DNA of 64,000 nt from Ignavibacteriota bacterium. Lineage in GTDB: Bacteria > Bacteroidota > Ignavibacteria > UBA10030. The stretch is taken from the NCBI GenBank assembly GCA_963701295.1, contig OY969585.1:1728001-1792000 (forward strand). The letters run 5' to 3'. This document shows, piece after piece, positions 22,445-49,391 of this stretch (its first letter is position 1; every line of letters starts with the position of its first letter). Below the pieces are notes generated by a model that was not told the origin of the DNA, ran no database searches, and saw nothing but the letters and a program-made list of their open reading frames with translations. Both the position numbers and the translations under genes were made by a program.

Positions 22445-23584
22445 ATGAAAAACTTATTATTTAGTTTTTTCATGATAGTCTTGATCTTTACTTCTGGAAA
22501 AGCACAGGGCTTTATCACAATTGATGCCCAAAGGGATGCTTTTTTTGATGGCTTAACTAATCCTAATGATGGAAAAATATTTATACCATCAAGGGCTTAC
22601 CTGCCGGAAGATACCGGCAAATACGGACCTCCGTGGGGTGACGCAGATATTTCCGGAATAGTATGGACTGCATGGGACACTACATATCTATACTACTATG
22701 TTGAAGTAAAAGATAATATCATTATTGACAATCAGAAAGCTAATTGGTCAAATGATAAAATTGAACTTAAATTTGATCCGAATCCTACACTAAAATTGAC
22801 AGGACAGGGTAATTGTATTCAGGTCGGTATGACGGCATTAGACCGTGGTGATGCTCAGTTAGACACAGCAGTAGATAATTTGGACTTAGACCAGAAGATT
22901 GCTAATGGGAAAGAAATGATAGATACATCTGGAAACCCATTTTGGTCTACACCTAATGATTATGCACGTAGAGAAACTGCTGATGGTTATGTTTTAGAAT
23001 TCAGGCTTCCTTTCAAATATATTAATAAATCGAAAAATTGGCTTCGGCCTGTAGCAGTGGGTTTACAATTCGGAAGTGCGATAAATTTAAATGATAACGA
23101 TAGTACTGGAAGAATGAATGCTGTGAATTGGTCTGCTGGACATAAAGATGCAGTTTGGAATACTCCAAAGTACGATGGCACAGTAACGTTATTAGACGGC
23201 CATAAGTGTAAATATGAAGCCAAAAGCCTTCAAGACTCAACTATTGTTAATGATAGTGCTGCGGTTTGGTATTTTGGTGGCACACCATTCACATCCGTAA
23301 AATCTTTTAGTGGTACTCCAGAATCTTTCAATTTAATGCAGAATTATCCCAATCCATTTAATCCGACAACAACCATTAAATTCACGTTACCACAGCGCAG
23401 CGATGTCCGGATTGTCCTTATAAACGTGTTAGGACAAGTCTTGAAAGAAATCGCCAAGGGCAACTACAGTGCCGGCAGTCATCAGGTGACGTTGGATGCT
23501 TCGCGTCTTGCAAGTGGCATTTATTTCTACAAACTACAGGCAGGTTCATTGAGCGATACAAAGAAGTTAGTGCTTATGAAATAA
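22445..23584 (+). CDS. Non-catalytic CBM9/DOMON-like sugar-binding protein with T9SS CTD
   Basis: Signal peptide; WTAWDTTYLYYYVEVKDN..W.NDKIELKFD, GYVLEFRLPF and INLNDND resemble CBM9. CTD LMQNYPNPFNP. Strong RBS GGAGG. No catalytic domain recognised. Confidence 0.78.
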   Translation: MKNLLFSFFMIVLIFTSGKAQGFITIDAQRDAFFDGLTNPNDGKIFIPSRAYLPEDTGKYGPPWGDADISGIVWTAWDTTYLYYYVEVKDNIIIDNQKANWSNDKIELKFDPNPTLKLTGQGNCIQVGMTALDRGDAQLDTAVDNLDLDQKIANGKEMIDTSGNPFWSTPNDYARRETADGYVLEFRLPFKYINKSKNWLRPVAVGLQFGSAINLNDNDSTGRMNAVNWSAGHKDAVWNTPKYDGTVTLLDGHKCKYEAKSLQDSTIVNDSAAVWYFGGTPFTSVKSFSGTPESFNLMQNYPNPFNPTTTIKFTLPQRSDVRIVLINVLGQVLKEIAKGNYSAGSHQVTLDASRLASGIYFYKLQAGSLSDTKKLVLMK

Positions 23585-23613
23585 TACTTCTTCCTGTCAT
23601 GATGTTCGTGCAT

Positions 23614-23663
23614 GCTCGCTTATTTCTGCCCTCTTCGTATCGGAAGAGGGCAGATGAGCGAGT
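23614..23663 (+). terminator. Strong intergenic hairpin (terminator or mRNA stabiliser)
   Basis: Perfect 12-bp stem TCTGCCCTCTTC/GAAGAGGGCAGA (23625-23654), extendable by GCTCGCT/AGCGAGT. No downstream U-tract. Confidence 0.6.
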
Positions 23664-23802
23664 GCATAAAGATTATGAACACAAGATAACTCGTTAAGAA
23701 AATGAAGATGGATGTATAGATAAATATTACTGTGGATAATAAGTAGTGTGGGTATTTCAAACAATTACAAGTAGGTAAAGAGGGTATCGCAAAAAGGAAC
23801 AT

Positions 23803-23895
23803 GTCATTGCGATCCCGATTCATCGGGAGAAGCAATCCGATAAAATGAGTAAAAAAGGAAAAGAGAAAAAGAGAAATTGCTCCGTTCGCAATGAC
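23803..23895. repeat. REP-like palindromic element GTCATTGCGA...TCGCAATGAC
   Basis: Perfect 10-bp terminal inverted repeat, an internal TCCCGAT-TC-ATCGGGA hairpin and AGCAAT/ATTGCT pairing. Confidence 0.65.
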
Positions 23896-23973: not shown

Positions 23974-25479
23974 ATGATGAAAATTTTTAAATCGATATTC
24001 TGTATCAAGAGTTTTGCAGGGTTCCTGTACTGCATGAGTATTCCGCTTTTAGGACAAATGAAGTCTGTCATCCCTGCCGGCGGTTCTCTCGGTATAGAAA
24101 ACGGCAATGATGCGTTAGCTATAGTGGGCGAAAAAATAATTACGGTAAGAGATTTCAGGGAACGCAGTGAATTTACGGTTCGCCCTCAGAATTTTAAAGA
24201 CAAGAATATCACATTAAACAATTTAATTTTTGAAAAGATTCTTACCCTAGAAGCAGAACAAGAGGCGAAGTCTGCAGTACATCCTGGGATGCAGGCCATG
24301 CTAGATGGCATTAAAGAACAACAGATGCGGGCTCAGCTCTACTATGAGGTTGCTTATAACAAAGTGAAATTCAATTCCGCTGAATTGGAAAAAGCGTACA
24401 CGCTGTCCACTCGTGAATACGAACTCGAGTTTTATCGCTTACCGAATAAGAAGTTCGCATACAAAATTCAAACAGCGATCGATGCTGGACCTACACGAGC
24501 CGATTCCTTATTTAAGGAAGTGGAAGAGATTCTGGGAAAGAAACCTGTCCATAAAACAAAATTTGACGATAACGATGACGATGCTATTCATAAAGCATTG
24601 TACACGGAGGCGCTGGATCCGGGGAAGATTGTTGGACCTGTGAGACTCGGTGATGGCGGATATATCGTTATGAAAGTGTTGACATGGGTTGATTATCCTC
24701 TTATAAGCGGTGAAGAACAGCAAGCAAGGTGGAATAAAGTAGGGGACATTATCCAAAACCGAAAAGCAGAGCAGCAGTGGCGCTCCTACCAGGCAAGTGT
24801 CATGAAGGGGAAGCGATTAGTATTTGATAAGCATTCTTTTGATGTGTTATCGGCCTGGGCGATGGAAAATTATTATTCCCACAAACAAAACGATTCTCTG
24901 AATATTCACATTGCAGAAATTGAAGGAAAGAAACCGGAAATTGATTTTAACAACCCTTTCTTTACGCTCGATAAAAAAGTATGGACTCTAAAAGACTTTC
25001 GAAAAGTGCTTCGTACTCATCCCCTCGTCTATAGAACGACTGCGCTTGACAGTACAAATTTTCGGAAACAATTCAAATTGGCAATCATTGATTTGATGCG
25101 GGATCATTATTTGACACAGGCGGCTTATAAGCGTTCTTTGGACAAGCATGAAAACGTGAAAAATACAGTCGGAATGTGGAGAGATTCTTTTTTGGCAACG
25201 GAAAAAGCAAAGAGTATTGTTGATACGGGCGTAGCTCAGGGGATCGTCAAGAGAAACGATGAGCGCGGCTTATCGGAATTTTGGAATTCGCAAGTGATCA
25301 TATTGCAGCAGAAATATGGCAAATCGATCTGGATAAACCATCCTTTGCTGGATCGTCTTGCATTAACAAGAATTGATATGATTGCCTTAAAACCAGGTTT
25401 TCCCTATCCTCTTGAGGTCCCTCAATTCCCGACATTGATCGTTTCCGAGAATCTTGACTATGCGACACTTAAAAAATGA
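23974..25479 (+). CDS. SurA/parvulin-like periplasmic protein (putative foldase), xylan cassette
   Basis: Signal-like N-terminus. The LAIVGEKIITVRDF..LNNLIFEKILTLEA pattern resembles SurA/PrsA N-domains, and GKIVGPVRLGDGGYIVMKV resembles a degenerate rotamase. Parallels ORF 47568. Confidence 0.55.
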   Translation: MMKIFKSIFCIKSFAGFLYCMSIPLLGQMKSVIPAGGSLGIENGNDALAIVGEKIITVRDFRERSEFTVRPQNFKDKNITLNNLIFEKILTLEAEQEAKSAVHPGMQAMLDGIKEQQMRAQLYYEVAYNKVKFNSAELEKAYTLSTREYELEFYRLPNKKFAYKIQTAIDAGPTRADSLFKEVEEILGKKPVHKTKFDDNDDDAIHKALYTEALDPGKIVGPVRLGDGGYIVMKVLTWVDYPLISGEEQQARWNKVGDIIQNRKAEQQWRSYQASVMKGKRLVFDKHSFDVLSAWAMENYYSHKQNDSLNIHIAEIEGKKPEIDFNNPFFTLDKKVWTLKDFRKVLRTHPLVYRTTALDSTNFRKQFKLAIIDLMRDHYLTQAAYKRSLDKHENVKNTVGMWRDSFLATEKAKSIVDTGVAQGIVKRNDERGLSEFWNSQVIILQQKYGKSIWINHPLLDRLALTRIDMIALKPGFPYPLEVPQFPTLIVSENLDYATLKK

Positions 25480-25581
25480 TATTGAAGATAGATTACAGTA
25501 CTGACAAAGACATCAATAAGTTTGATTCATGTACATTGTTTTTTGATATAACTTATGGTAAACAAAGGAAGGGTTGTTAAA

Positions 25582-28569
25582 ATGAAAAAACTAACTACAA
25601 TCTTTTTGTCAATTTTCTTCCTCCTTGCTGCAAGTGCAAGTATGCTCTATGCTGGAGTAGCAGGAAAAATTTCTGGCAGGCTGATCGATAAAGCAACGCA
25701 AGAGCCATTAATAACGGCAAATGTCATCATTAAGGGAACCTCGCTAGGTGCATCAAGTGATATCGATGGAAGTTATTCGATATTAAATATTCCTCCTGGG
25801 GTCTATACTGTCAGTATATCCGTCGTTGGATATCGAAAGGTACAGATTGAAAATGTCCGTGTGAATATAGATCTTACGACTACCGTTGATGTCGCGCTTG
25901 AACCAGAAGCCGTTGAAATGGATGCTGTCGTTATTTCAGCGGAGAGACCTCTGGTGACAAAAGATATGACATCGTCTCTTTCAACCGTTACATCTGAGCA
26001 GATTCAAAATCTGCCGGTCGATAACATTGCACAAGTTCTGAGATTAAATGCGGGTATAGTCATGAGTGGAGGTCAGATTACGATTCGCGGCGGCAGGACG
26101 GGTGAAGTGGCATATTGGGTTGATGGTATTTCATCGACTGATGTCTATAATGGGACACAGGGTGTGACGGTGGAAAACTCTTCTATTCAGGAACTTCAGA
26201 TTGTAAGCGGTACCTTCAACTCTGAATACGGACAGGCAATGTCGGGTATTGTCAATATTGTCACGAAAGATGGCGGCAGCAATTATACCGGGCAGATAAA
26301 AATTTATGGAGGGAGTTACTTAAGCGGTGATGATGTGTTTAGTCTGTACAAACATCTTGTTACGGCGGAAAATCCTGTTGCCAATTCGAATGGGATTAAT
26401 ACAACACAGATCGTAAGCAGCGAAAAATATTATCCGTTGAAAAAAATAAATCCTCTTTATAGCGGAGAATTTACACTGAGCGGTCCGGTGCCTTTCTTGG
26501 AAAATAATTTAAAATTCTTTGCAAACGGTCGTTACTATTCAGACGATGGATATTTTTATGGGGCAAATTGGTACTTGCCAGATGGAGTTGCAGGTGATTC
26601 CTCTATAGTGACGATGAATCCATATCAGAATATCTCCGCCCAGGGAAAACTCACCTACAACTTAATGGGTGGCAATATACGGATGAGCTATGAGTTCTTC
26701 GGGAATAAGTGGAAGAGAGACAGGACTTACTATCCGTTTTCATCGAGCGATTTTCCTTACAATTTTAATGCTCATGATTATTTGTACGATCCGTATGGAT
26801 TGCCAAAATCCTTTGGCGATGCATACACTCACCTTTTTTCATTGAGTCATGTTTTGTCTTCATCAACCTTTTACGAACTGCGTGTCAGCAGATATCAATC
26901 AGAAATGAATCAATACGTATTTGAGAATCCAACACAAGCAGTAAGATATTTGGACAGTACAGGCACGGTCGATCCAAATGGTCCAGATGGCTATCTCCAA
27001 CCAAACAATAGTGGAGGTTATTCAGCACCCGCTTCCAACAGTTTCAATAACAAAGGTATGGATCCAACCCATACAAGCCGCAGTACGGCTTATTGGGCCG
27101 CAAAATTCGATCTTACCAGCCAGGTTAATAAATCTCACGAAATGAAATTCGGTGCAGAAGCAAGACTTCATGAACTCACATTAGATAGATATCAAATCGT
27201 GAGCGCAACGGATGCAAGCGGAACGATAATAACTCCATTTGTTCCGGCTGTGCCAAATCAAAGCAGCATTTACAGAAGTTTGTATGATAGAAAACCGCAA
27301 GAGTATTCTGCCTATGTGCAGGACAAAATGGAGTACAACCAAATCATCGTTAACATTGGATTGAGGTACGATTATTTCGATGCAAATGCATCAATGCTGA
27401 CAGATCCAACTGACCCTGATATATACTCACCAGTTAAACCTGAACACATCTATGCCGGATGGATCCCTTTACCAGACAGTTATTCCGGAACACTCGATCA
27501 ATGGATCGCAGATAACTTAGCAAACGGAACCTTCAGGGAATATACTCCCGATGAACGAAGAGCTTTTATGCAGCAAAAAGTCAGTGCCAAGATGGCTCTA
27601 AGCCCGCGGCTCGGCATTGCGTTCCCGATTACCGATAAAGGAGTTATCCATTTTTCCTATGGGCATTTCTTCCAAATTCCGCAATTCCAGTATCTCTATG
27701 CTAATCCCGATTTCAAAATCAGCAGCGGCAGCACTTCCAGTGCCACACTCTTTGGAAATCCAGATCTGAAACCTCAAAGGACTGTGATGTATGAACTTGG
27801 ATTGCAGCAACAGCTTTCTGATAACATTGGAATAGATGTGACAATGTTCTACAGAGATGTACGCGATTGGGTGGGAACAAGCAGTGTGCCAATTTCAGTA
27901 TATGGGGGAAGTGCGACGTATGCGATGTTTGTGAATAAAGACTATGAAAATGTGCGCGGAGTGACATTAAAATTCGAGAGACGAATGAGCAATAATTTTT
28001 CATTCCGTGCCGATTATACATACCAGATTGCTGATGGAACGTATTCTAATCCGACGGATGCCTTCAATGCGATATCCAGCAATCAAGCGCCAGTCTTAGC
28101 TCTCGTTCCTATGAATTGGGACCAGAGACATACTCTCAATGCGCAATTGATCTACAGTAATTCCGATTGGATTATTTCACTTATCGGCACATACTGGAGC
28201 GGACAGCCATACACGCCAAGTTTTCCCTCGAGTGAAGCGACAGGTTCCTCAGCAGTTACAGGCCTGACGACAAATAGCGAGAATATGCCAGACCAGAAAA
28301 ATATTGATTTAACAATCAGCAAAAAAATCCAAATGAGCCATTCTCTCTCTCTCGAATTTTTTATGAATATTTATAACTTACTCGATGAAAGAGATGCAAC
28401 GAATGTTTATTCCGACACAGGAAACCCGGATTACACGACAAACCCTCGGCGACTTTCGCAAGTATCATATAATTCAGATAGGGTAAGCACACCGGAAGAT
28501 AATATGAATCAACCCGCTTGGCATACTGCACCGCGCCAAATTCAACTTGGTATAACATTAGGATTCTAA
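25582..28569 (+). CDS. TonB-dependent receptor (non-SusC type) with N-terminal carboxypeptidase-regulatory-like domain, xylan cassette
   Basis: Signal peptide, plug IRGGRTGEVAYWVDG..IQELQIVSGTFNSEYGQAMSGIVNIVTK, NIGLRYDYF, GNPDLKP and a C-terminal Phe. Start re-called to ATG 25582. Confidence 0.9.
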   Translation: MKKLTTIFLSIFFLLAASASMLYAGVAGKISGRLIDKATQEPLITANVIIKGTSLGASSDIDGSYSILNIPPGVYTVSISVVGYRKVQIENVRVNIDLTTTVDVALEPEAVEMDAVVISAERPLVTKDMTSSLSTVTSEQIQNLPVDNIAQVLRLNAGIVMSGGQITIRGGRTGEVAYWVDGISSTDVYNGTQGVTVENSSIQELQIVSGTFNSEYGQAMSGIVNIVTKDGGSNYTGQIKIYGGSYLSGDDVFSLYKHLVTAENPVANSNGINTTQIVSSEKYYPLKKINPLYSGEFTLSGPVPFLENNLKFFANGRYYSDDGYFYGANWYLPDGVAGDSSIVTMNPYQNISAQGKLTYNLMGGNIRMSYEFFGNKWKRDRTYYPFSSSDFPYNFNAHDYLYDPYGLPKSFGDAYTHLFSLSHVLSSSTFYELRVSRYQSEMNQYVFENPTQAVRYLDSTGTVDPNGPDGYLQPNNSGGYSAPASNSFNNKGMDPTHTSRSTAYWAAKFDLTSQVNKSHEMKFGAEARLHELTLDRYQIVSATDASGTIITPFVPAVPNQSSIYRSLYDRKPQEYSAYVQDKMEYNQIIVNIGLRYDYFDANASMLTDPTDPDIYSPVKPEHIYAGWIPLPDSYSGTLDQWIADNLANGTFREYTPDERRAFMQQKVSAKMALSPRLGIAFPITDKGVIHFSYGHFFQIPQFQYLYANPDFKISSGSTSSATLFGNPDLKPQRTVMYELGLQQQLSDNIGIDVTMFYRDVRDWVGTSSVPISVYGGSATYAMFVNKDYENVRGVTLKFERRMSNNFSFRADYTYQIADGTYSNPTDAFNAISSNQAPVLALVPMNWDQRHTLNAQLIYSNSDWIISLIGTYWSGQPYTPSFPSSEATGSSAVTGLTTNSENMPDQKNIDLTISKKIQMSHSLSLEFFMNIYNLLDERDATNVYSDTGNPDYTTNPRRLSQVSYNSDRVSTPEDNMNQPAWHTAPRQIQLGITLGF

Positions 28570-28588: not shown

Positions 28589-31500
28589 ATGAAAAATAAA
28601 TTCTTTTATTCTATTTTTGCTGTCCTTTCATGGATTGGGTTATCCAATTCAATTGTGCAAGCCCAGATGCGATACCTTCATGGAGATGATCGAGAATACC
28701 GAATCGGAATGCATTCCGGGAATCAATTCAGGACAACTTTTTTCAATGATGGAACATGGGGTGGAAATACGAGCAATACACCAGGAATGAGCATTGTAAA
28801 GACTCAAATTGCTGGTGAATGGCCTATTAATTCAGGCCACTGGTACCTTATTGATGGAGATACTTTTGTCCTTTCGGAAGTTGCTGACAATTATGATCCG
28901 CTTGAACATTATTTCTTGGCAGACTCGGGTAAAGTGGGTAGAGTTCATCACATTCAGAGCACCGTCAAAGCTGCACCTGGAGGAGGTACTGTAGGTGATC
29001 AAGATCCAAACACTAAAAAGTGGTGGACTTTCTTACCGTTACCGGGATTTGCAAATCCAAGAGATCAGATCATTGCTATGGCAAAGGGAGACCAACAATG
29101 GTATGACGATGCAAAGTCAGCGGGATCCTGGCCTCTCTTCTGGCCAGATATTAGAGATCCACAAAACCCTTACAAAATATATTCCGCCGATGGGTGGGCT
29201 GGTTCCTGGAATGGATATTTTGGCAGAAATAAATTTAATGCTGATGAAGAGAGTTACTTTGTTGCCGATGATTATGCAAAACAGAAGTTCCCTTCGTTCA
29301 GGCCGGATACAACAGATGTACTTAGAGGCGGATTAGGCATACGAATGTATGTGAGAGGATTTCAATGGGCAAAAATGCCCGTACAGGATGCTTTATTTAT
29401 CGTGAGCGATCTGCAGAATATTGGAACCTATCAGCACAATAAAGTGGTGTTCGGATATAAGATTGGCAACAACATGGGTCAAACAAACGGTGGAGCCGAT
29501 GCAGGTGATGACGGCGGCAGTTATAGTATTGTTGATAATTTATGTTGGACGTGGGATCAAAACGGTCTTGGCGCTTCAGATTGGGGACCAACTCCTGTTG
29601 GAATATCAGGCGCCGCGCTTCTGGAGACCCCGGGTAATCCTTTTGATGGAATCGATAATGATAATGATGGAAACCCAAATAGTCCCAATTATGGTATGAA
29701 AAACAAAGAAACAGGTCCCGTGACGCTACATACCGTTAATGGACCACAAACATTTTATGCTGGTTCAGGGCCGACTATTTCAACGAATACGTTTGCACCG
29801 AAGGTGCTTGGACTTAACGACCAGATCGTATTGATTGATTACAAAGACCCACATTATAAGCGAACTGTTACAACGTTCAAACAGGCTCTTCTCGCTCAGG
29901 GCAAAACATTGGCCACGGATACTCTTCTCATTCCATTTGGTGGAATCACGTACAAGTTTTGGGTTGGAGATACATTGAAAGAAATCGGCGATAATTTATT
30001 CGATGATAATTTAAATGGTATCATTGATGAAAACAGAGGAGTTACAAATCCATCGACTGGAGTAACGACCTATCTGTATCTAGACCATAAGTACATTGAC
30101 TATTTGAACCCTGATGTAACCACAAATGGATCGCTGAATCCTCTTATTGATGAACGCAGGGATGATGGTATTGATAACAATGATAATTGGGATCCTGCTA
30201 AAGATGATGTTGGCCAGGATGGTTTAGGTCCTACAGATCTCGGTTACCCGGGGCCTGATATCGGAGAAGGTGACGGGAAGCCGACACCGGGAGAACCCCA
30301 TTTTGATAAAACAGATATCAATGAAAGCGACATGATAGGGTTGACGAGCTTTAATTTGTACCTATGGGCTCAGAAAGACCAGTTTGGAGACGGGACACAG
30401 CAAGATGATGAAGGTTTTTGGAATAGGCTTGCTCCAGGCTCTTTTTATGCCTACCCCAGTGCAGACAATGTCGAATTATTATTCGGTTCCGGATATTTCC
30501 CGTTGCCCCCGGGTGATCTTGAAAGAATTTCCTATGCGTTTATTGTTGTGAGCGGCCCTGCGGGCGGTTGGAAAGGCGGTTCTGGCGAAGTTGCACCACC
30601 TGATAATTTACTTTTGGAAAAGACCAATGTGCAATCGGCTTACGATCAAAATTATAATTTTGCCAAGGCTCCTTTTATACCTGCCGTTATAGCTGTTGCA
30701 GGTGATAAGAGAGTGACTTTATTTTGGGATGATATAGCAGAATCTTCTGTTGACGCAAACAATGTTGTAAATTTTGAGGGATACAAAATTTATCGTTCCA
30801 CAGATCCTGGCTGGAATGACATGACTCCAATTACCGACGGCCATGGTAACGTGGTAATGCGCCAACCGTTAGCACAGTATGATCTTGATGATACATATTC
30901 TGGCTATATTTCTGCAACTCCAAATACAGGAGTTCGTTTTTGGTTAGGGAGTAATACCGGTCTGAGACATTTTTATATCGATACAACTGTAACGAATGGA
31001 ACTACCTATTATTATGCAGTGACGTCGTACAACTTTGGCGATGTCAATAAGGGAATCGATCCTTCTGAATGCGTTAAATACGTTGCCGTTCAATCATCTG
31101 GCGATGTCGAAAAAGGGAAGAATGTGGTTGTCGTTCGACCGGAAGCACCTGCCGCAGGATATGTCCCAGCAAATTTTAAAGATTCAAAAGTCACAGCCTT
31201 ACCTGGTAGCACGGGTACAGGAGTAGCTGGTTATAAAATTTTGGATGATACTCGAATTAAGAATAGCCATACCTATCAAATCACATTCAAAGATACAGTC
31301 ACTGGTATAGCAAAAGGTTTAGCAGAATCGACAAAGAGTTTTACACTTACCGATATCACCGTGATAGACACTCCGAAAATTTTATTAAAGGATAACTCGT
31401 TTACGGGAGACAATGGAGGACTTCCGGTGACAGATGGTTTTCAGTTATCGTTCTCCAGTAATCCTGAAAAACTGAGCTATGATTCAGCAAGTTCTGGATG

Positions 31501-32328: not shown

Positions 32329-33348
32329 ATGAGAAAATATATAAGTGTTATTCTAGGAATGCTGCTGATAGCGCAGATCAGTGTCTATGCACAGGGCGTG
32401 ACGAAAGTTGGAACAACAGCAGCTGGTTTTTTAGGTATAGATATGGGACCGCGAGGTACGGCCATGGGCAGTGCCTATGTGTCGGTAGCAAATGATGTCA
32501 GTGCGATGTATTGGAACCCAGCAGGGATTGCTCGGATCGACGGATTTGAGGCAAGCTTCACCAATACGAAGTGGATCGCAGACCTATCATTGAACTATGC
32601 AGGTGCGGTGTTGCCATTAGGAGATGTCGGGAACATTGGTATCAACGCGACATTTCTAACGATGGATCAAATGGAGCGAACGACCATCGAGCAGCCGGAT
32701 GGGACGGGGGAATTTTTCGACGCGGGCTGCTATGCGTTTGGGTTGAGTTATGCCCGCAACTTGACGAACCAATTTGCCATCGGCATAAATGCCAAATATA
32801 TCAACGAGCGGTATTACCACAGCAACGCTACTGGGTTTGCTTTGGATGTGGGTGCACTATTTGACACAAAATTCAATGGGTTAATGCTGGGCATGAGCAT
32901 CTCAAACTACGGAACGAAGATGCAGTTGGATGGCGAGGATTTTCGTGTGCAGCACGATATTGATGTGAGTGTCTCAGGGAATAATCCTAACATCAATGCG
33001 AATCTGGCGACCGATCCATATGACCTGCCGTTATTGTTCCGTGTCGGGATATCTATGGATGTCCTCAAAGGTGCAGCAAACAGTAACCTGATCATTTCCG
33101 TTGATGCGCTGCATCCAAGTGATGATGTGGAATCGGTAAACGTTGGCGGTGAATATGTTTTTAATAACATATTGGCGCTTAGGGCCGGCTACAAAGGATT
33201 GTTCGCAAAAGATTCTGAACAGGGTTTTAATTTTGGTGGTGGGGTATGGTATACGATAGGAACAACCACTTTACATTTTGATTATGCATACATTAATTTC
33301 GGTATCTTGAATTCTGTACATATGTTTAGTATCGGTTTGGGACTTTAA
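32329..33348 (+). CDS. PorV/PorQ-like (FadL-fold, UPF0164-like) outer-membrane beta-barrel, xylan cassette
   Basis: KVGTTAAGFLGIDMGPRGTAMGSAY..AMYWNPAG is the PorV-like N-terminal signature. Amphipathic strands, LRAGY and DYAY follow. Confidence 0.82.
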   Translation: MRKYISVILGMLLIAQISVYAQGVTKVGTTAAGFLGIDMGPRGTAMGSAYVSVANDVSAMYWNPAGIARIDGFEASFTNTKWIADLSLNYAGAVLPLGDVGNIGINATFLTMDQMERTTIEQPDGTGEFFDAGCYAFGLSYARNLTNQFAIGINAKYINERYYHSNATGFALDVGALFDTKFNGLMLGMSISNYGTKMQLDGEDFRVQHDIDVSVSGNNPNINANLATDPYDLPLLFRVGISMDVLKGAANSNLIISVDALHPSDDVESVNVGGEYVFNNILALRAGYKGLFAKDSEQGFNFGGGVWYTIGTTTLHFDYAYINFGILNSVHMFSIGLGL

Positions 33349-33993: not shown

Positions 33994-34146
33994 CTACAGA
34001 TGGCGGATCTGATCTGCGTATCGACGACTAACGATAAGCTCGGTTTCTCTCTTGTCTTTGAGTCTCACTTTGTATCGTCCGGCGAACCATTTGACAAGCT
34101 CACGAATGAATTTCACATTGATGATGACGGCGCGATGAATGCGCCT
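33994..34146 (-). pseudogene. 3' remnant of a LytTR-domain response regulator
   Basis: RIHRAVIINVKFIRELVKWFAGRYKVRLKD..ELIVSRRY is the LytTR C-terminus. The 5' part is missing. Confidence 0.75.
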
Positions 34147-34333: not shown

Positions 34334-34407
34334 TGATACCCCAGAGTATTCTGAGTGGCTTTAATTGTAGAAAGAAAGCTTTTCTGGTCTGTAAAAATTG
34401 TTTTCTC

Positions 34408-36305: not shown

Positions 36306-36349
36306 TTGACTCTTAAAAAGAAAATCCGGAATTTTTGGAAGCGCTTCCA
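36306..36349 (+). promoter_or_regulatory. Promoter region (-35 TTGACT) with perfect LacI-type operator TGGAAGCGCTTCCA (36336-36349)
   Basis: 14-bp perfect palindrome with central CG, 21 bp upstream of the lacI ATG. Confidence 0.8.
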
Positions 36350-36370
36350 CAAAAATTGAACGTTGAGATC

Positions 36371-37405: not shown

Positions 37406-37478
37406 TAAACGGAATGAGTATAGATTTTTATTCATACAACAAATTGATAGGAAAAAACAGGAAATAAGGAGAACCATT

Positions 37479-40327: not shown

Positions 40328-43300
40328 ATGAAGACTATCACTTATTCCATTCTTTTTTATTCGATCATCTTCTTGAGCGTTGCGAGCGTTTTCGCACAGA
40401 CTCAGGAACCGAGCGGCCGTGTCTATCGGCGATTTGCAATTATGAACGGAAACCAGGTGATGACTGTATTTGGCAATTACGGCGTCATTGGTCAGCCAGC
40501 AGAACAAGGATACAGAGGTGCATGGAAATATCCGAACAATGGATATCTTGGAGATGTAAGCCCGTTAATTGGTGCTGAGGTAAGGTACGATTCGGTGTTC
40601 AGAAATGGCCAGTGGGTGCATAACTTTCACTCTGTTGCCACCTGCCCGGTCGATCGTCCGACACTATTAACGGATACAGATCCCCGGACGGGAAAGTACT
40701 GGACCTTCGAACCAGAAGCTGGATATTTTAATCCGAGTAAAGAAAAAGTCGCTATGAGCGATGATAAAACTTCGTGGCCACCGACGTGGCCGGATAAAAC
40801 GGGAGATCCTACGGATCCAGGTTGGCCTGGTTCCTGGAATGGCTATTTTGGTAAAAACAAAAAAAATGCTGATCTGGAAACATATTTCGTAATGGATGAT
40901 AATAATGACGAGCGTTTTAACAATGCAGCAAACAATCAATATGGAATAGCATTCAAACCTGATTCGACTAATCCAAGCAGGAACGGACTTGGTTTAGTGA
41001 TGAATGTGCGCGCAATGCAATGGGCACAGTTCCTAGCAAAAGATAATATTTTCTGGCTTTATGAAGTCACCAATACAGGGACGACAAATTACGATCGAGC
41101 AGTGTTTGGAATGCTTGTCGGGACCTATGTCGGTGTTACTTCGACAGAGGATTATGGTGAGTATGACGATGACTGGTCTTTTTTTGATGTGAATAATAAT
41201 CTCACTTATACCGGTGACATCAAAGCGATTAATGGCCGGTGTATGAAAAACCCTCTCTGGCAACCTACACCATGCAGCGGAGCGGGGCTAGTGGGATATG
41301 CATTTCTTGAAAGCCCCGGAAATCCCTATGATGGGATTGACAACGATGGAGATGCTGATTCTTCTTTGACCGGAAGGCTTGCCCCTCGATTTACTGCAGC
41401 AAGCTTTGATTCGACTTTGCTTACTGCGGGTATGCAAATTGTGTTGATCCGAGATGATTATAGTCGATATCTCTATACAATTCCTTCTGCTGATTCGGTT
41501 CAGATAACAACTCGTGGACTGACTCGATGGATTTATCCGGGGAAAACCTGGGTGAGCGAGGGGAATGTACTGCCTAATGGATCTATCAATCCAAATGCTT
41601 ATGACGGTGTTGATAACAATTATAATGGTCTTATCGATGAAAATTACTATCTGCATTATCGACAGGTGAAAAGAGAGCCGGATGGAACAATCCTTTTTGA
41701 TTTACTCCGGCCAGTAGCATATATCGATTATTTTAAAGGTATTGGCAATGATCCTTATAGTATGATCGATGAACGGCGCGATGATAGAATCGACAACAAT
41801 AAAAACTGGAACATTCTTCATGATGATGTAGGCAGAGATGGTATTCCCAATACAGGAGATTATGGCGAAGGAGATGGCCGGCCAACATCCGGTTATGATG
41901 ACAATGGAAATGATACAGGTCTTCCAGGTGAACCACATGTAGATAAAACAGATGTGAATGAGTCTGATCAAATTGGCCTGTCAAGTTTCTTCTATTTTAC
42001 CCCTGCCGGTAATTTCAAGATGGGTGATAAGGATACCATGTGGATATATCTTGCGCCGGGTTTCTTTGATGTACCGAATGTGATTCAGAATAATAGACCT
42101 GTTGAAGGCGCAGATGGAGATTTTATTTACGGGTCCGGGTATTTTCCGCTGCGCGCAAAAAAAACCGAACGATTTTCTCTCGCCCTGGTGTATGGAGGCG
42201 GTAAACAACAAGGGTACGATGTTGATGTTGCCGACTTATTGAAAAATAAGAAGACTGTTCAAAAGATTTATGATGCAAATTATCAATTTCCCCAACCTCC
42301 GGATTTGCCGACTCTGACAGCTGTTCCGGGTGATAAGCAAGTAACGCTCTACTGGGATCGGGTTGCAGAACAGACAATCGATCCTCTTCTTCAAACTAAA
42401 ACGTTTGAAGGATATAAAATCTATCGCTCCACTGATCCAACCTTTAACGATATTCTAACGGTCACAGACGGATCTGGTTCAGCTGTTGCATACCGGCCAT
42501 TAAAGCAATACGATTTAATAGATGGGATTACTGGATATTTTCATACGTCAGGTGAGTTATATAATGATATTTCAGGGTTTGCATACTACCTTGGGAGCGA
42601 TAATGGCATTGTACATAGCTATGTCGATAGTTCTGTTCAGAATGGAAGAACCTATTATTATGCGTTAGTTGCTTACAACCATGGCGATGAATATTTGGAA
42701 ATTCTTCCCGCTGAGAATAAAATCAGTATTTCAATTTCACCAACAGGTGCCGTGACTCTCGGTCAGAATTGCGCTATGGTTGTGCCCAATGCGAAGACTC
42801 TCAATTATCTTCGTCCAGCGAATGGAGTGCTGCTTGATCATCTTTCTGGTGTTGGGACGGGAGATGCTTACTACAAAGTGGATGATGATACGAAAACTAC
42901 AGGACATCGTTATCGGGTCGAATTTCTCGATACACAAGTGGATGGAGTCGATAATAATAGTAATGGACTTATCGATCTGGCCGACTCTACGGAGTGGGAT
43001 CGCCTGACAGTAAATTATAGCGTAAGAGATTTGACCGAACGTACTGACACTCTCGTTTCTATGGATACAACGCTTGTCACCTTGCAGCGGAAGAATTTTG
43101 TTCCGGGAACAATAACCGTCTATAATGCACAAGGCTTCGTCGTACCGGATTCATTATATAAGTTAAACTCTAAATCTGGTCAAATCCGGGGAATGCGTAG
43201 TGGAACATTTCCTCCGGGACTGTATACAATCAAGTATCAATATTTTCCAGTCTATCAGAGTCAGTATATCCGTGGAACTCCATTTGTAAGTGATAGTAAG

Positions 43301-44176
43301 GATGCTGATGTGTTCGACGGAGTGGAAATTATTTTCAACAATCCTTGGGATGTTGTCAAGGTTGATTCATTAACGAAATGGATCAGCAGTAAATTAGGGT
43401 ATCGATTAAATATGTTACCAATAGATTTGTATGACAATCAAGGGCAGCCCTTAGCGAAAGGATATAAAAAACCTTGTGATTATGAGTTTCAATTTGATTC
43501 GACTGCATTCATAGATACTTCATATGCGGACCCGATTCTTGGAACGGATCCGGTTCCTACGAATTTCCGGATTTATAATAAAACGGAGAAAACATTCGTC
43601 AAATTTAGTTATACGACATTAAACTTTGATACCCGTGGAAGGCTCTCCCCCAAAGATGATATCTTCCTTTATGAAAAAAATCCACGTGGCGGAATGAGTT
43701 ATTCATGGGAATTATTTTTTGACTCCAATGATGGTAAGGTCATTCCATATCATAAAAATGATACACTTCTGATCATCACATCAAAACCGTTTGAACAAGG
43801 TGATACTCTGACGTTTATGACAACGAAACCAACGTTAGATAATACCCTGACACAAACTGCATTATCAAGAATTCGTGTCGTTCCCAACCCATACGTTGTA
43901 GCATCGACGCTTGAATCGCCATTACCCCCCAGCGTCACTAGTGGTCGCCTCCGTCGGATTGACTTTATTCATTTACCTGCATCAGCAAAAATTCATATCT
44001 ATACTTCGCGTGGTGATCATGTCATTACATTAGTACATGATGGAAACATAGAAGATGGACATGTCTCGTGGAATTTAAAATCAAAAGAGAATCTCGACGT
44101 AGCATTCGGGGTATATTTCTATGTAGTGGAATCTTCAGTTGGCACTAAAACCGGTAAAATTGCGATTATTAAGTAA
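40328..44176 (+). CDS. Large secreted hypothetical protein (1282 aa), paralogue of 28589-32311
   Basis: Shares GSWNGYFG, PGNPYDGIDNDGD, IDERRDD, GEPHVDKTDVNESDQIGL, GSGYFPL, FEGYKIYRSTDP and the C-terminal IRVVPNPY..FIHLP..WNLKSK..GVYFYVV..KIAIIK. Starts 2 bp after the TBDR stop. Confidence 0.85.
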   Translation: MKTITYSILFYSIIFLSVASVFAQTQEPSGRVYRRFAIMNGNQVMTVFGNYGVIGQPAEQGYRGAWKYPNNGYLGDVSPLIGAEVRYDSVFRNGQWVHNFHSVATCPVDRPTLLTDTDPRTGKYWTFEPEAGYFNPSKEKVAMSDDKTSWPPTWPDKTGDPTDPGWPGSWNGYFGKNKKNADLETYFVMDDNNDERFNNAANNQYGIAFKPDSTNPSRNGLGLVMNVRAMQWAQFLAKDNIFWLYEVTNTGTTNYDRAVFGMLVGTYVGVTSTEDYGEYDDDWSFFDVNNNLTYTGDIKAINGRCMKNPLWQPTPCSGAGLVGYAFLESPGNPYDGIDNDGDADSSLTGRLAPRFTAASFDSTLLTAGMQIVLIRDDYSRYLYTIPSADSVQITTRGLTRWIYPGKTWVSEGNVLPNGSINPNAYDGVDNNYNGLIDENYYLHYRQVKREPDGTILFDLLRPVAYIDYFKGIGNDPYSMIDERRDDRIDNNKNWNILHDDVGRDGIPNTGDYGEGDGRPTSGYDDNGNDTGLPGEPHVDKTDVNESDQIGLSSFFYFTPAGNFKMGDKDTMWIYLAPGFFDVPNVIQNNRPVEGADGDFIYGSGYFPLRAKKTERFSLALVYGGGKQQGYDVDVADLLKNKKTVQKIYDANYQFPQPPDLPTLTAVPGDKQVTLYWDRVAEQTIDPLLQTKTFEGYKIYRSTDPTFNDILTVTDGSGSAVAYRPLKQYDLIDGITGYFHTSGELYNDISGFAYYLGSDNGIVHSYVDSSVQNGRTYYYALVAYNHGDEYLEILPAENKISISISPTGAVTLGQNCAMVVPNAKTLNYLRPANGVLLDHLSGVGTGDAYYKVDDDTKTTGHRYRVEFLDTQVDGVDNNSNGLIDLADSTEWDRLTVNYSVRDLTERTDTLVSMDTTLVTLQRKNFVPGTITVYNAQGFVVPDSLYKLNSKSGQIRGMRSGTFPPGLYTIKYQYFPVYQSQYIRGTPFVSDSKDADVFDGVEIIFNNPWDVVKVDSLTKWISSKLGYRLNMLPIDLYDNQGQPLAKGYKKPCDYEFQFDSTAFIDTSYADPILGTDPVPTNFRIYNKTEKTFVKFSYTTLNFDTRGRLSPKDDIFLYEKNPRGGMSYSWELFFDSNDGKVIPYHKNDTLLIITSKPFEQGDTLTFMTTKPTLDNTLTQTALSRIRVVPNPYVVASTLESPLPPSVTSGRLRRIDFIHLPASAKIHIYTSRGDHVITLVHDGNIEDGHVSWNLKSKENLDVAFGVYFYVVESSVGTKTGKIAIIK

Positions 44177-44188: not shown

Positions 44189-45223
44189 ATGATGATCAAA
44201 AAAAACAAAGAACTCGGAACTCTTGCAGCGATCGCATGTGTTTTTTTATTGGGATATTCAGAATCTAATGCACAATCTAAAATTGGCACGACAGCAGCTC
44301 AATTCTTAGGTATTCCGGTTGGAGCACAGGCTTTGGGTATGGGTGGAACATCAGTTGCCGCAATGTCTGATGTCGGAACAATTTACTTTAATCCTGGTGC
44401 ATTTGCACAAGCTCAGAAGACAGAAGTGCTGGTCTCATCAACGGATTGGCTTGTCGGCTCGAAACTACGATGGTTAGGAGCGATGGTGAATTTCGATGGA
44501 ACGAATGCTTTTGGTTTAAGCATAACTCAACTTGATTACGGTGAAGAAGAAGTCACAACTGAAGACAACCCTGATGGAACAGGCGAACGATGGTCTGCAC
44601 AGGATTTCGCGGTGGCACTTTCCTACTCCCGCAATTTAACTGATCGCTTTTCTATCGGAGGCTCTGCAAAATATATCAGCCAATCAATCTGGAACGAATC
44701 AGCGAGTACGTTTGCCTTTGATATCGGATTATTGTTTGTCACCGGATTTCATGATATGCGCCTCGGAATGTCCATAGCGAATTTTGGCGGTAATATGACG
44801 ATGGACGGACGCGATCTTAAGAAGGTTATCGATATCGATCCCAGTGATGCAGGTTCTAACAAACTCAATGTAGCCAAATTAAATACCGATCCATGGCCCA
44901 TCCCATTGTTGTTCCGCGTCGGGCTTGCGATGGATGTTCTCAAGAGTGAATTATGTACGCTTACGATTGAAAGTGATGCACTTCGTCCTAGCGATAATGT
45001 TGAAGTGGTGAATCTTGGAGCTGAAGTAACACTTTTAAATATTATTTGTCTGCGTGGCGGGTACAAATCTCTGTTCCAAACAGATTCGGAAGAAGGATTG
45101 ACTCTTGGAATCGGCGTGAAATATGCTGAACCAAGTTCTATGGGGTTGGAAGTAAATTATGCCTATCAGCAGTTTGGCCGATTTGGCAATATCAATACAT
45201 TCTCGGTTGCAGTGTGCTTCTAG
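44189..45223 (+). CDS. PorV/PorQ-like outer-membrane beta-barrel, starch cassette
   Basis: KIGTTAAQFLGIPVGAQALGMGG..IYFNPG, PDGTGE, PLLFRVG, LRGGY and a terminal Phe. Paralogue of 32329-33348. Confidence 0.82.
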   Translation: MMIKKNKELGTLAAIACVFLLGYSESNAQSKIGTTAAQFLGIPVGAQALGMGGTSVAAMSDVGTIYFNPGAFAQAQKTEVLVSSTDWLVGSKLRWLGAMVNFDGTNAFGLSITQLDYGEEEVTTEDNPDGTGERWSAQDFAVALSYSRNLTDRFSIGGSAKYISQSIWNESASTFAFDIGLLFVTGFHDMRLGMSIANFGGNMTMDGRDLKKVIDIDPSDAGSNKLNVAKLNTDPWPIPLLFRVGLAMDVLKSELCTLTIESDALRPSDNVEVVNLGAEVTLLNIICLRGGYKSLFQTDSEEGLTLGIGVKYAEPSSMGLEVNYAYQQFGRFGNINTFSVAVCF

Positions 45224-45377: not shown

Positions 45378-47489
45378 ATGAAATACAAAATTATCGTTTT
45401 TCTTCTTATGAGCATGATGTTTGTGTTTTATTCATCAGTTGCTCAAACAATAGATACTGTCACCGTGACATTCCTGATCAATACTTCCACAATACCCGAT
45501 ACGATGAAAGCAACGTCAACCGTACAAGTTCGCGGCGACACTCCGCCGCTCTCGTGGGACAGTTCAATCCCGCTGTTCAAGAACGATTCAACCAAAGTAT
45601 TCGCGAAAAACATCGGAGGCGACTATTGGACGGCGACGGTGAAGTTCCCGCTCAAACGTGATTCAAGTAAAACGATTCTATACAAATTCTTCACAAACGT
45701 AAAGGATTCAATCGTGGAGAGTGATGTCGGTTGGGAAAACAACTTAACAGGTGTGGGTCAAAATGGAAATCGGATGCTAAAAATCGGTCCGTATACCGGG
45801 AATACAGACACCGCTATTGCTCTTCAGTATGCAAATGGCAGAACGATCCAAGCACAATTTTGGAAACCGTACGTTCCTTCGGCTGACAGTGTGGCTGTAA
45901 TGTTTCGTGTGAATATGCAAGCAAATGAAGGCTTCAACAAATCGACCATGAAGCTGGGTGTCCGCGGTGATATGGCACCATTATCTATGAGCACTACAAT
46001 TTTTCTCAAAAAGGAATCGTCGCATGGTAACGGTGGCCAGGATCCGTATGACGGAACAAATTTCTGGTCTGCAGTAGTGAAATTCCCCAAAACCGCTGTA
46101 GCAGATACTGTCCATTACAAATTTGTTATCCATGCCCTCGCAGATGATTCGGCTGCATCTCCGGCCTATGAAAACAATATAACTGCCGCTCCGGATGTAG
46201 GAGCAAATGGTTATCGATTCTTTAATTTCCGTCCCGATATGCCGGACACCACACTCTACTGGAAATTCTGGCAAAATATGCCGCCGGGGATCATTGCCTT
46301 TTCGGATAACGTTATCATTACTTTCCGTGCAGATCTTGCCAGAGCAATTTCAGAAAATGGATTTGCTTATGGTGATACACTTGTAGTACGTTCCGGCTAT
46401 ATCAACAGTGCTTCTTCAATCCGAGAAAAGAAAATGTTAAGGGTCGGTGCGTCTTCGAAGTACCAGGTCGTTGATACCGTGACCACGAAGCTTAGGACAC
46501 CACTCTTTTATCAATATTATGAAACGCCATTAAGTGGTGAAATAAGAGAGATTTATTATAACTTTGCAGATCCCGGAACCGGTGCAGAATCAGAGAAACG
46601 CAGGGACACAATGTCTGCGTATACATTAACAATTCAGGACACGATTATTTCGACGTCAGAAGAACACCGAATGCCAAGGTTCCAAAATATGAATCCATTG
46701 TCTCAAAATGTTCTTGTCACATATACATGCGATGTACGTCCTGCGATCTATGAACTGAAAGCCGGAAAACAACTGATTTCGACAAATATCACAAACTATC
46801 TTATTACTGATCCAGACAGCGTATTGATCGATGGAGTTTGGATGGATGGTCCGGCGGTTGGCGGATGGGATATAGGTGGTGCTTGGGGAGCAGATCGTCG
46901 GTTGGTTGATACTGCTAAGATGTGGGATGATGGCACTCATGGTGATCTTGTAGCTCATGATTCCATTTTCACACTTCAGTATTTTTATACAACCTCTACA
47001 ACACTTGGACCTACGACAATTGGACAGGAATTCAAATTCGGTATTTATGGATGCGATAATGAAGGCGGCTATGGGAATAACCACATTGAGAATATCAATG
47101 ATGCGAATCCGACTTATACACTAGCCTCGCAGTTTGGTAGCATCGATCCGGTCTTCTACAGTGCCTGGGATTATACCAATGAACGTCCAGCAGGCGCAAC
47201 CAGTGTTAAAGGAGCAGGAATCCCGTTGGCATATAGTCTTGCGCAAAACTATCCGAACCCCTTCAATCCATCGACTATGATCAATTACGAAATCAAACAA
47301 TCAGGGTCAGTTACACTGAAGGTGTTTAATGTGCTGGGACAAGTAGTTGCCACATTGACTGACGGGAAACAAGAAGCTGGCAAACATTCTATTAAGTTTG
47401 ATGCTTCTCGGTTTTCCTCTGGCATATATTTTTATCAGATCACTGCTGGCAATTTTATTGCTACAAAGAAGATGATGCTCTTAAAGTAA
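45378..47489 (+). CDS. Non-catalytic multi-module protein (tandem CBM20-like/starch-binding-like beta-sandwiches) with T9SS CTD
   Basis: Four modules each starting with a V.F.V-type strand (VTFLINT, VMFRVNM, ITFRADL, VTYTCDV). Shared VRGD..PLS and YKF..E features, an MWDDGTHGD motif, CTD LAQNYPNPFNP and strong RBS AAGGAGG. Confidence 0.72.
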   Translation: MKYKIIVFLLMSMMFVFYSSVAQTIDTVTVTFLINTSTIPDTMKATSTVQVRGDTPPLSWDSSIPLFKNDSTKVFAKNIGGDYWTATVKFPLKRDSSKTILYKFFTNVKDSIVESDVGWENNLTGVGQNGNRMLKIGPYTGNTDTAIALQYANGRTIQAQFWKPYVPSADSVAVMFRVNMQANEGFNKSTMKLGVRGDMAPLSMSTTIFLKKESSHGNGGQDPYDGTNFWSAVVKFPKTAVADTVHYKFVIHALADDSAASPAYENNITAAPDVGANGYRFFNFRPDMPDTTLYWKFWQNMPPGIIAFSDNVIITFRADLARAISENGFAYGDTLVVRSGYINSASSIREKKMLRVGASSKYQVVDTVTTKLRTPLFYQYYETPLSGEIREIYYNFADPGTGAESEKRRDTMSAYTLTIQDTIISTSEEHRMPRFQNMNPLSQNVLVTYTCDVRPAIYELKAGKQLISTNITNYLITDPDSVLIDGVWMDGPAVGGWDIGGAWGADRRLVDTAKMWDDGTHGDLVAHDSIFTLQYFYTTSTTLGPTTIGQEFKFGIYGCDNEGGYGNNHIENINDANPTYTLASQFGSIDPVFYSAWDYTNERPAGATSVKGAGIPLAYSLAQNYPNPFNPSTMINYEIKQSGSVTLKVFNVLGQVVATLTDGKQEAGKHSIKFDASRFSSGIYFYQITAGNFIATKKMMLLK

Positions 47490-47502
47490 GCAATGATCCA
47501 TA

Positions 47503-47532
47503 GATAAGGCGGGAAGAGATTCCCGCCTTATC
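47503..47532 (+). terminator. Perfect 13-bp hairpin with GAGA tetraloop (terminator or mRNA stabiliser)
   Basis: GATAAGGCGGGAA-GAGA-TTCCCGCCTTATC begins 14 bp after the stop codon, followed by only a weak U-tract (ATTTG). Confidence 0.65.
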
Positions 47533-47567
47533 ATTTGATGATTCCTTCCTGTGTTGCATCGCATCGA

Positions 47568-49391
47568 ATGAATAAATATTCCCTGAATATTGTATTGCTC
47601 TGTGTTTGTATATCTGCCAGCAGAACTCAACCTATTGAAAATCAAGGACCGTATATTGCCAGAGCAGGGAATATATATATATCTGAACAAGAATTTTTAG
47701 AACGGTATGAACTTCTTCCAGGCCAATATCGGAATCGCCAAAATAATGTTGAAGAATCAAAACTTGTTTTCCTGTATTCTTTGATAGCTGAAAAGCTATT
47801 GGTGCAGGAGGCAGTAGCTCGTCACATTGATCAAGATAGTTTGTATCAAGTAGCCATAGAAGGTATAAAGAAAAAGTTGGTGCGTGACCAGCTCTATCGA
47901 GAAGAAATAAGCGGGAAAGTCAAAGTGACGAAGGCAGAGATACAAAAAGCTGCGATTGATGCACGCCGCCAGCTCTCCATTTCGTTTCTTTATTTTGAAG
48001 ATAGTACGGATGCAGCGTTTGTCAGGAAGCAACTCAAAAATTGTAAACAATTCAGCCATTTTCAAATTGATACCGCTATGGCAATTATCTGCGATACGGT
48101 TACATTACAGTGGGGCGAAGCAGAAGCACCTATTGAACAGGCAGGATTTCTATTAAAGAAGGGGGAATGTTCACCGGTTATAGAAGCTTCAACAGGATAT
48201 TATATACTTCATTTAGAAAAAGAATCTCCCAATCCATTTTATATTGCCATGCAGCCAGGTGTTCTTAATGAGCGAGTTGAGACGAAACTCCGGCTCAGGA
48301 AAGAAAAAGCACGGTTTGATGAATACGTACAAAATGTTCTTCATACGAAAACCGGTTTTTCTCTTCCTCGTCCATTTAAAATCGTTGCACAGACATTGAA
48401 CACTATTTGGAAAGATGTACCCCCGGCAACAGAACAGATGATAACAGATTCTCTTCTGGAGATCGTGCAAGAGCGGTGTCATTCGATTCTACAGGATTCA
48501 ATGGAAGTGGTCGGTTCTTCATGGTGGAGTGTGCAAGATGTATTATTTAAATTGCGTGGTAAGATTTTTAAAATTGATCCAAGTCGCACAACGGGAATCG
48601 CAGCACAATTGAACAGCCATCTGCGTATTCTGGTGCAGCAAGAATTACTCTCAGAAGAGGCGCTTTCCAGGAAACTGGATGAACACTGGTCCACGAAAAA
48701 GGAATTGGATGTTTGGTGTCAACAGATACTTGCCAAGTACGAAGAAACTGATATTCAAAGAAAGGTTCAACTATCCGATCAAGAACTATTTCAATATGTC
48801 TCGGAAACATCTCCTGATGTGCACTTTCCTCGCGTCCAAATTCGAGAATTACATACGACGGATGCAACAGCCATGGAACATGCTCTTGCTGAGGTACATT
48901 CGGGAGTTCCATTAGACGAGGTTATTCGGAAACGCTCAAGCGACGCTCACTCTGCACAGAATGGCGGACTTTCAGAGGGATTCACAATTAATACACGGCA
49001 ACCGCTCGGCATACTTTCGTGGAGAATGAATGTGGGTGCGCAACAGGGTCCTATTCATTTGAAAGATGACTATATTTACTTTGAGCTTATCAAAAAAGAA
49101 TTACCTGCCGGAGTAAGTGATTCGTCCTTTACTGCGGCAATGCAAAAAGCTGCTTCAGCAGCGCATTCTCTCAAGCAGAAAAAAATATTAGATGCTTTTA
49201 TCGCGAAGAGTGCTCAACAACGTGGGTACGATATCTATGAAGATCGATTGAAGCTTCTCAAAGTAACGAGTGCACCGATGATGACCTATCGTATTCTCGG
49301 ATTTGGAGGAAGAATGTTTGCGGCTCCTTTCGTGACCCGGCTGGTTGATTGGATAGGTGTTGAGAATCCGGACAATATCGTAGTACCATGA
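47568..49391 (+). CDS. SurA/parvulin (PpiC)-type peptidyl-prolyl-isomerase-like protein, starch cassette
   Basis: IARAGNIYISEQEF..LYSLIAEKLLVQEA, SPVIEASTGYYILHL, and the parvulin-like RSSDAHSAQNGGL..GPIHLKDDYIYF. Start re-called to ATG 47568; the track starts at 47535. Confidence 0.7.
   Translation: MNKYSLNIVLLCVCISASRTQPIENQGPYIARAGNIYISEQEFLERYELLPGQYRNRQNNVEESKLVFLYSLIAEKLLVQEAVARHIDQDSLYQVAIEGIKKKLVRDQLYREEISGKVKVTKAEIQKAAIDARRQLSISFLYFEDSTDAAFVRKQLKNCKQFSHFQIDTAMAIICDTVTLQWGEAEAPIEQAGFLLKKGECSPVIEASTGYYILHLEKESPNPFYIAMQPGVLNERVETKLRLRKEKARFDEYVQNVLHTKTGFSLPRPFKIVAQTLNTIWKDVPPATEQMITDSLLEIVQERCHSILQDSMEVVGSSWWSVQDVLFKLRGKIFKIDPSRTTGIAAQLNSHLRILVQQELLSEEALSRKLDEHWSTKKELDVWCQQILAKYEETDIQRKVQLSDQELFQYVSETSPDVHFPRVQIRELHTTDATAMEHALAEVHSGVPLDEVIRKRSSDAHSAQNGGLSEGFTINTRQPLGILSWRMNVGAQQGPIHLKDDYIYFELIKKELPAGVSDSSFTAAMQKAASAAHSLKQKKILDAFIAKSAQQRGYDIYEDRLKLLKVTSAPMMTYRILGFGGRMFAAPFVTRLVDWIGVENPDNIVVP

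Follow-up and report, generated by a model that had tools for sequence, protein, structure and literature searches.

A conserved triad of receptor, large-protein and barrel genes at the xylan and starch loci of an Ignavibacteriota bacterium, a candidate SusD-independent glycan importer

In polysaccharide utilisation loci (PULs) with a SusC/SusD core, the gene of a TonB-dependent receptor (TBDR) is followed by that of a dedicated extracellular partner, and this arrangement is repeated for each glycan amid genes for carbohydrate-active enzymes (CAZymes), inner-membrane transporters and a regulator. According to the accessible part of one source, susCD is scarce in the gene clusters of Ignavibacteriales (PMC10576277). 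Here we analyse a 64,000-nucleotide stretch of an Ignavibacteriota genome (OY969585.1, positions 1,728,001 to 1,792,000; the window, to whose positions feature coordinates refer), where a xylan locus and a starch locus each hold a TBDR gene, a large-protein gene and a barrel gene, here called the triad. The triad has the SusC/SusD layout but neither the SusC signature nor SusD; its partner is a 760-1280-aa non-lipoprotein, predicted to be beta-rich, with a tail of the T9SS type (T9SS, type IX secretion system); the triad also includes a private barrel gene. By inference, the triad would work like the SusCD core without being a member of it.

PorQ holds PorZ with an uncleaved C-terminal domain (CTD), as far as the available text of the source goes (PMC10947112). 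The PorQ-PorZ and PorV-PorU pairs resemble the triad in that a PorV/PorQ-family barrel is joined by a neighbouring CTD protein, the tail of which would not be cleaved off; in contrast, the triad barrels lie below both equivalog cut-offs, occur in ten copies beside TBDRs and coexist with separate PorU-PorV and PorZ-like loci. For type B CTD proteins, genetically linked cognate PorP/SprF shuttles set the final localisation, according to an excerpt of the source (PMC12618676). The triad would likewise be a linked cognate cargo-shuttle pair, but its tail is nearer to type A and PorZ tails, its barrel is a PorV/PorQ-family member and a transporter is linked to the pair. BamG, a FadL-family barrel, anchors BamH, which has a carbohydrate-binding-type fold, at the side of BamA (PMC12611786, accessible portion). 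A barrel anchoring a surface protein beside a larger barrel would be common to both systems, whereas BamH is a lipoprotein and its host barrel is BamA; the triad barrels score 16-25 bits against 250 on the BamG model, and BamG orthology was rejected. The atypical PUL chu_1276-1280 of Cytophaga hutchinsonii is also a SusD-less, TonB-dependent transporter-like glycan-uptake cluster, so that SusD-less PULs as such are already known; going by its description alone, it differs in a protein resembling surface glycan-binding protein (SGBP) B, and PorV is unmentioned in the text available (PMC12016534).

One published case may be the triad cassette itself. The 'sus operon' of Melioribacter roseus (Mros0764-0758) has three middle genes named SusC, SusD and SusE, and its flanking GH31, GH13, secreted GH13 and endoglucanase genes match those of the Melioribacter locus L053 (L053:1-21451; such labels denote loci of our genome and its relatives), as judged from the accessible part of the source (PMC3534657). 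The middle genes of L053 encode a foldase, a TBDR, a large protein, a barrel and a carbohydrate-binding module (CBM) protein, and its genome gave no PF07980 match. Going by these flanks, the published 'susCDE' operon is likely a triad cassette; since the paper gives three middle genes where L053 has five, the identity is unproven. The terms Ignavibacter-, T9SS and PorV are absent from the available text of a 2026 review of glycoside transporters (PMC13543919), and no description of the triad was found in the literature searched (titles and abstract openings, mostly without subscription papers). The triad is real, conserved and apparently undescribed.

The triad in the window and in its genome

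An earlier sequence-only reading of this DNA had placed ten open reading frames (ORFs) at the two loci, and all were found there (Table 1). The gaps within the triads, put at 2-19 bp, measured 19 and 17 bp at the xylan locus and 2 and 12 bp at the starch locus. A Pfam scan of the window identified GH43, CE15-type, GH3, GPH symporter and GH30 genes as xylan-side neighbours, and GH77, LacI, three GH13, GH57-CBM20 and MFS transporter genes on the starch side; CAZymes, transporter and regulator are thus co-located, as in SusC/SusD PULs. The proposed paralogy of the two loci held for receptors and large partners (Table 1), for barrels (44%; identities over aligned residues) and for the foldases (25%; profile match 99.8%), but the CBM proteins share the T9SS tail only.

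Both receptor plugs were said to lack the SusC signature, and indeed they read G(T/A)FNxEYGQAMSG instead. On the SusC model TIGR04056, receptors A and B reach 64 and 63 bits against a cut-off of 368, while TIGR04057 gave no match at the window receptors and none above cut-off genome-wide. The absence of SusD extends to the whole genome (closed, 3.64 Mb, 99.3% complete): PF07980, PF14322 and PF12771 had no match, and positive controls did. The description of the barrels as PorV-like is right at the level of the PorV/PorQ family NF033709, which both match at 203 bits against 90, but not at that of the equivalogs. Orthology to PorV was rejected (74 and 77 bits against 250, other genes sitting beside PorU), as was orthology to PorQ (89 and 102 bits against 220, other genes sitting beside a PorZ-like gene). 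In a tree of 16 barrels of the genome the housekeeping parent of the triad barrels was not resolved.

The large partners A and B matched no Pfam or NCBIfam model. A PDB sequence search with copy A gave no match, one with the large-protein profile gave weak centrin matches only (E 0.02, on the Asp-rich part), the ESM Atlas returned unnamed clusters only, and Foldseek on the model returned FN3-type matches only. The AlphaFold2 model of partner A (residues 26-1135, 64-sequence alignment, the remaining C-terminus being the CTD; pLDDT 85.6, pTM 0.77) is almost entirely beta. Its core resembles the N-terminal beta-supersandwich of GH94, GH15, GH65 and GH116 enzymes (8rf9 with Z 19.6 and rmsd 3.3 over 260 residues, and the glucoamylase 1lf6 with Z 18.7 and rmsd 2.8 over 233 residues). 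An independent model of a short-type paralogue core (pLDDT 90.9) retrieved the same list of folds (Z 18.6, rmsd 3.6, 259 residues), and in both models the supersandwich with linker helices of GH15, GH65, GH94 and GH116 scores Z 17-19.6. No catalytic (alpha/alpha)6 barrel is present in the model of residues 26-1135, which has short isolated helices only and an FN3 domain after the sandwich; folding as a known hydrolase, which would have counted against the sequence-only reading, is in this respect not predicted. Among the 50 matches listed per fold search there was no SusD/TPR fold, residues beyond 835 and the Asp-rich insertion being barely covered. We take the large proteins to be a new protein family, whose core is predicted to be a carbohydrate-enzyme-type sandwich without the catalytic barrel.

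Long and short partners are homologous over their full length (profile probability 99.6%). The Asp-rich insertion is a feature of the long type, and we take it to be calcium-binding from DxDxDG-type motifs. Partners A and B have signal-like N-termini without an N-terminal Cys. Their tail can be aligned with those of type A, PorZ-like and PorU-like proteins, TIGR04183 being passed by copy B alone, marginally; all ten partners of the genome share one CTD variant, which differs from the type A tails, of which a motif count gave approximately 99.

Ten triads are present in this SusD-free genome (contig G000:C1). Four have a partner of 1150-1280 aa: those of the xylan and starch loci, of a beta-glucan locus (GH16/17/30/5/3) and of a locus with GH31/35/59. 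Among the ten paralogues the identities of receptor, tail and barrel correlate at 0.94-0.98. Elsewhere the genome carries SprA, PorU paired with PorV, and a PorZ-like gene that two barrels adjoin, and the triad barrels are therefore additional to these.

Some copies are interrupted, by decay or assembly error: the frame of one triad receptor contains a stop (G000:C1 2874333-2877581) and two partners are each broken into two frames (G000:C1 2010761-2014214 and 2508043-2510504). The sprA gene (G000:C1 3470808-3477759) may also be split near its end, with a frame of 2037 aa against about 2200-2500 in relatives.

Conservation and glycan context in relatives

Relatives were studied as the best 79 of at least 274 loci, those with at least 500 bases on the side examined being scorable. 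The TBDR lies directly upstream of the large protein in 71/75 scorable relatives and the barrel directly downstream in 55/60; both neighbours are in place in 50 of 56, across Ignavibacteria, Calditrichota, KSB1 and Marinimicrobia, and in several of the misses the expected gene is one ORF farther off. The titles of these best 79 loci also name Fidelibacterota (with Marinimicrobia), WOR-3, 'Cytophagia/Bacteroidia' (several bins), Lentisphaeria and Alphaproteobacteria (one bin each); Rhodothermia and Gemmatimonadota appear in no title among them. At four loci (L037, L038, L042 and L081) two or three triads stand in tandem, long and short mixed, once with two large proteins and one barrel.

Of 48 loci with a length of 15 kb or more, 37 hold a CAZyme or CBM gene and 29 an enzyme; both are minimum counts, the scan having covered 76 of 254 neighbour clusters. 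The same enzyme families occur in 12% of random 22-kb windows of our own genome, a rough control from one genome. The synteny across lineages and, for most loci, the CAZyme link that had been expected are thus borne out among these relatives, whose titles do not include the Rhodothermia and Gemmatimonadota that the sequence-only reading had proposed to examine.

Trees of 48 triples (44 complete relatives plus four of our own) agree with one another (r 0.79-0.91, 28-29 of 45 splits common), the partner tree being closest to the receptor tree (r 0.91). The xylan copy is placed with GH10/43/127/CE15/GH3 loci and the starch copy with GH13/57/77 loci. Agreement between such trees shows joint inheritance, not contact.

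Accessory genes, regulation and other features

Of the five-gene unit that had been proposed, the core of TBDR, large protein and barrel is conserved, whereas foldase and CBM gene vary. In 32/61 scorable relatives a foldase is found upstream of the TBDR (the foldase A family in L017, L018, L020 and L024), and in 29/42 the barrel is followed downstream by the gene of a type A CTD protein. Since the two usually lie on opposite sides of the triad, and since the bodies of the two CBM proteins align no better than shuffled ones can (47, where shuffling gave 40.5 on average and 60 at most), the supposed block of CBM protein, hairpin and foldase is not a unit; by sequence, these genes are frequent but variable accessories. 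Both hairpins were confirmed, and the one after the CBM9 gene is likely transcript-stabilising. Foldase B has weak rotamase matches and foldase A none; homologues match strongly, and A and B are homologous. 'CBM-only' suits the CBM9-like xylan protein, but the starch protein has no CBM match of its own, CBM20/48/53/X25 being seen only through homologues: in the cluster of downstream CTD proteins (31 members), 18 of 23 scanned have such a match and 0/23 a catalytic one. Two 638-aa tandem-CBM9 CTD genes, each near a short-type triad (G000:C1 2286214-2288130 and 2495656-2497572), have matching ends, which indicates recent duplication.

The starch cassette would be under LacI control, judging from the regulator gene and the palindrome TGGAAGCGCTTCCA at its start, which we take to be a LacI operator. 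This palindrome is single-copy in the genome at up to one mismatch, identical at L072:6011 and similar in L032, L033, L046 and L048. A promoter scan of positions 33300-37600 gave chance level (12 against 11.8). Elsewhere in the window, a second TBDR-like barrel (PF14905; 316-3147, minus strand) without partner or barrel genes adjoins a LacI gene and GH43, and the stretches 33349-34591 and 15163-16750 are long and without an ORF of at least 100 aa.

Table 1. Features of the two cassettes, in window positions, and the other triads of the genome, in positions of its contig G000:C1
Feature	Position	Strand	Evidence or remark
CBM9-like protein with type A T9SS CTD (xylan accessory)	22445..23584	+	PF06452 E 4e-14, PF18962
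Long stem-loop 3' of CBM9 gene, without T-tract	23597..23672	+	-49.5 kcal/mol for 23590-23680
Degenerate SurA/PrsA-like foldase A (accessory)	23974..25479	+	no own Pfam match; profile against second foldase family 99.8%
TonB-dependent receptor A, non-SusC	25555..28569	+	PF00593, PF07715, PF13715; TIGR04056 64 bits against 368
Large partner A	28589..32311	+	candidate signal peptide; predicted supersandwich with Asp-rich insertion, then FN3 and two beta domains; variant CTD of T9SS type
PorV/PorQ-family barrel A	32329..33348	+	NF033709 203 bits; profile matches solved PorV, E 2e-21
LacI-family regulator, first in starch cassette	36335..37405	+	PF00356, PF13377; same place in L072
Palindrome TGGAAGCGCTTCCA, candidate LacI-type operator	36336..36349	.	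perfect 14 bp, immediately 5' of likely LacI start
TonB-dependent receptor B, non-SusC	37479..40325	+	PF07715, PF13715; 42% to receptor A
Large partner B, paralogue of A	40328..44176	+	42% to A; TIGR04183 24.5 bits (cut-off 23); weak PorZ-tail match
PorV/PorQ-family barrel B	44189..45223	+	NF033709 203 bits
Type A CTD protein, likely starch-binding CBM20/48-type repeats (accessory)	45378..47489	+	own matches CTD only
Stem-loop between CBM-like gene and foldase B	47490..47535	+	hairpin prediction
SurA/parvulin-like foldase B (accessory)	47535..49391	+	PF13145/PF00639 weak; homologues with strong rotamase matches
Eight other own-genome triads (L003-L013)	G000:C1 2797669-3118378, 2007592-2015301, 2277923-2286102, 2504727-2512839

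Proposed mechanism and rival explanations

The triad is, in our judgement, probably a SusD-independent glycan importer in which the barrel holds the uncleaved partner as a glycan-binding lid over the TBDR; partner export, tail-barrel binding, receptor contact and glycan binding are the steps that we infer. The partner would exit through the SprA pore, after which its own PorV/PorQ-family barrel would take it over and retain it with the tail uncleaved, by analogy with PorQ-PorZ and with the cognate type B pairs; the barrel might sit next to the receptor as BamG does next to BamA. The sandwich could then bind oligosaccharides freed by secreted hydrolases and hand them to the receptor. CBM proteins may act in a SusE/F role and the foldase may help assembly, both as optional accessories.

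Several observations weigh against this importer, or against its stricter forms. Five triads of the genome have a shorter partner and a downstream lipoprotein-like gene, with an IPT/TIG match in four of the five. In the class survey of 121 genomes, 63 have the large protein, 36 have SusD (with one or two matches each) and 19 have both; SusD is equally frequent with the large protein (19/63) and without it (17/58), and mutual exclusion of SusD and triad was rejected. The proposal that T9SS proteins replace the SusD and SGBP lipoproteins agrees with the SusD-free own genome, but it does not hold strictly in view of these paralogues and of SusD in 19 of 63 triad genomes. No CAZyme was seen in 11 of the 48 long loci, nor near the triad L010 (2006982-2015301; paralogue H), which adjoins a ribosomal-protein operon, has an upstream DUF4397 lipoprotein gene and is possibly a non-glycan or housekeeping copy. 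Co-divergence is equally expected from operon co-duplication. As the supersandwich also occurs in mutarotases, lyases (PL26), a GH174 fucanase entry and YidC (the first three at Z 12-14.5), passive glycan binding is not proven. Finally, SprA is present in 121/121 genomes of the class, whereas GldM was matched in 0/15 class members against 15/46 other phylum members, which served as positive controls; the export machine would therefore not be the canonical motor-driven T9SS.

As side observations, genes for a solute-binding-like protein and for a two-component pair stand in front of two of the five short-type triads, and the T9SS of the class, with SprA, PorU, PorV and approximately 99 type A CTD proteins (own genome) and no GldM match, would have a divergent or missing motor.

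It seems unlikely to us that the partner anchored by the barrel serves instead as a scaffold or assembly partner, whether a BamG/BamH-like canopy or a platform for CBMs and enzymes, with capture left to the CBM proteins and the lipoprotein of the short subtype. Such a role would suit the conservation within the partner, where FN3 (0.64) and the Asp-rich insertion (0.59) exceed the sandwich (0.52), as well as the CBM-type gene 3' of the barrel in 29/42 loci, the triads without CAZyme context and the BamG/BamH precedent, as far as its source is accessible (PMC12611786). However, the carbohydrate-enzyme-type sandwich is kept in both subtypes, and the partner tree is the nearest to the receptor tree and tracks substrate context. 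Still less probable is a new surface enzyme (supersandwich glycanase, lyase or mutarotase) feeding the receptor with its product. The mutarotase, PL26 and GH174 fold matches and the conserved acidic and basic core residues E221, D228 and R256 point in this direction, but the top matches are non-catalytic N-terminal domains, neither an (alpha/alpha)6 nor a TIM barrel is in the model, and one family spans loci for xylan, starch and beta-glucan, each with hydrolases of its own. We give similarly little credence to co-regulated genes without a physical complex, in which case the barrel would be a generic shuttle or a channel of the FadL type, and the partner would be periplasmic or released: weak FadL-family matches of the barrels (Pfam), the tail passing the type A model in one of two copies and the missing GldM would fit, but each of the ten paralogues has one barrel of matching divergence, the barrel profile matches solved PorV and the gaps are 2-19 bp.

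Beyond the SusD-independent importer itself, there might exist a second, independently built class of glycan importer common among lineages of the FCB group, with a T9SS-exported supersandwich lid fixed on a TBDR by a private PorV/PorQ-type barrel, a new class of tail and shuttle and a T9SS without the known GldLM motor, hidden among hypothetical or mislabelled SusCDE proteins; this we hold tentatively, at slightly under even chances.

In summary, SusCD is used as the hallmark of PULs and is scarce in Ignavibacteriales clusters, according to the accessible part of the source (PMC10576277). The triad offers a testable answer to how these glycan degraders take up their substrates and a marker with which to find loci and predict substrates (63 of 121 class genomes), with an example from a cultured genus in Melioribacter L053. 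Furthermore, it brings a new protein family, and T9SS shuttle barrels would be put to a new purpose in it.

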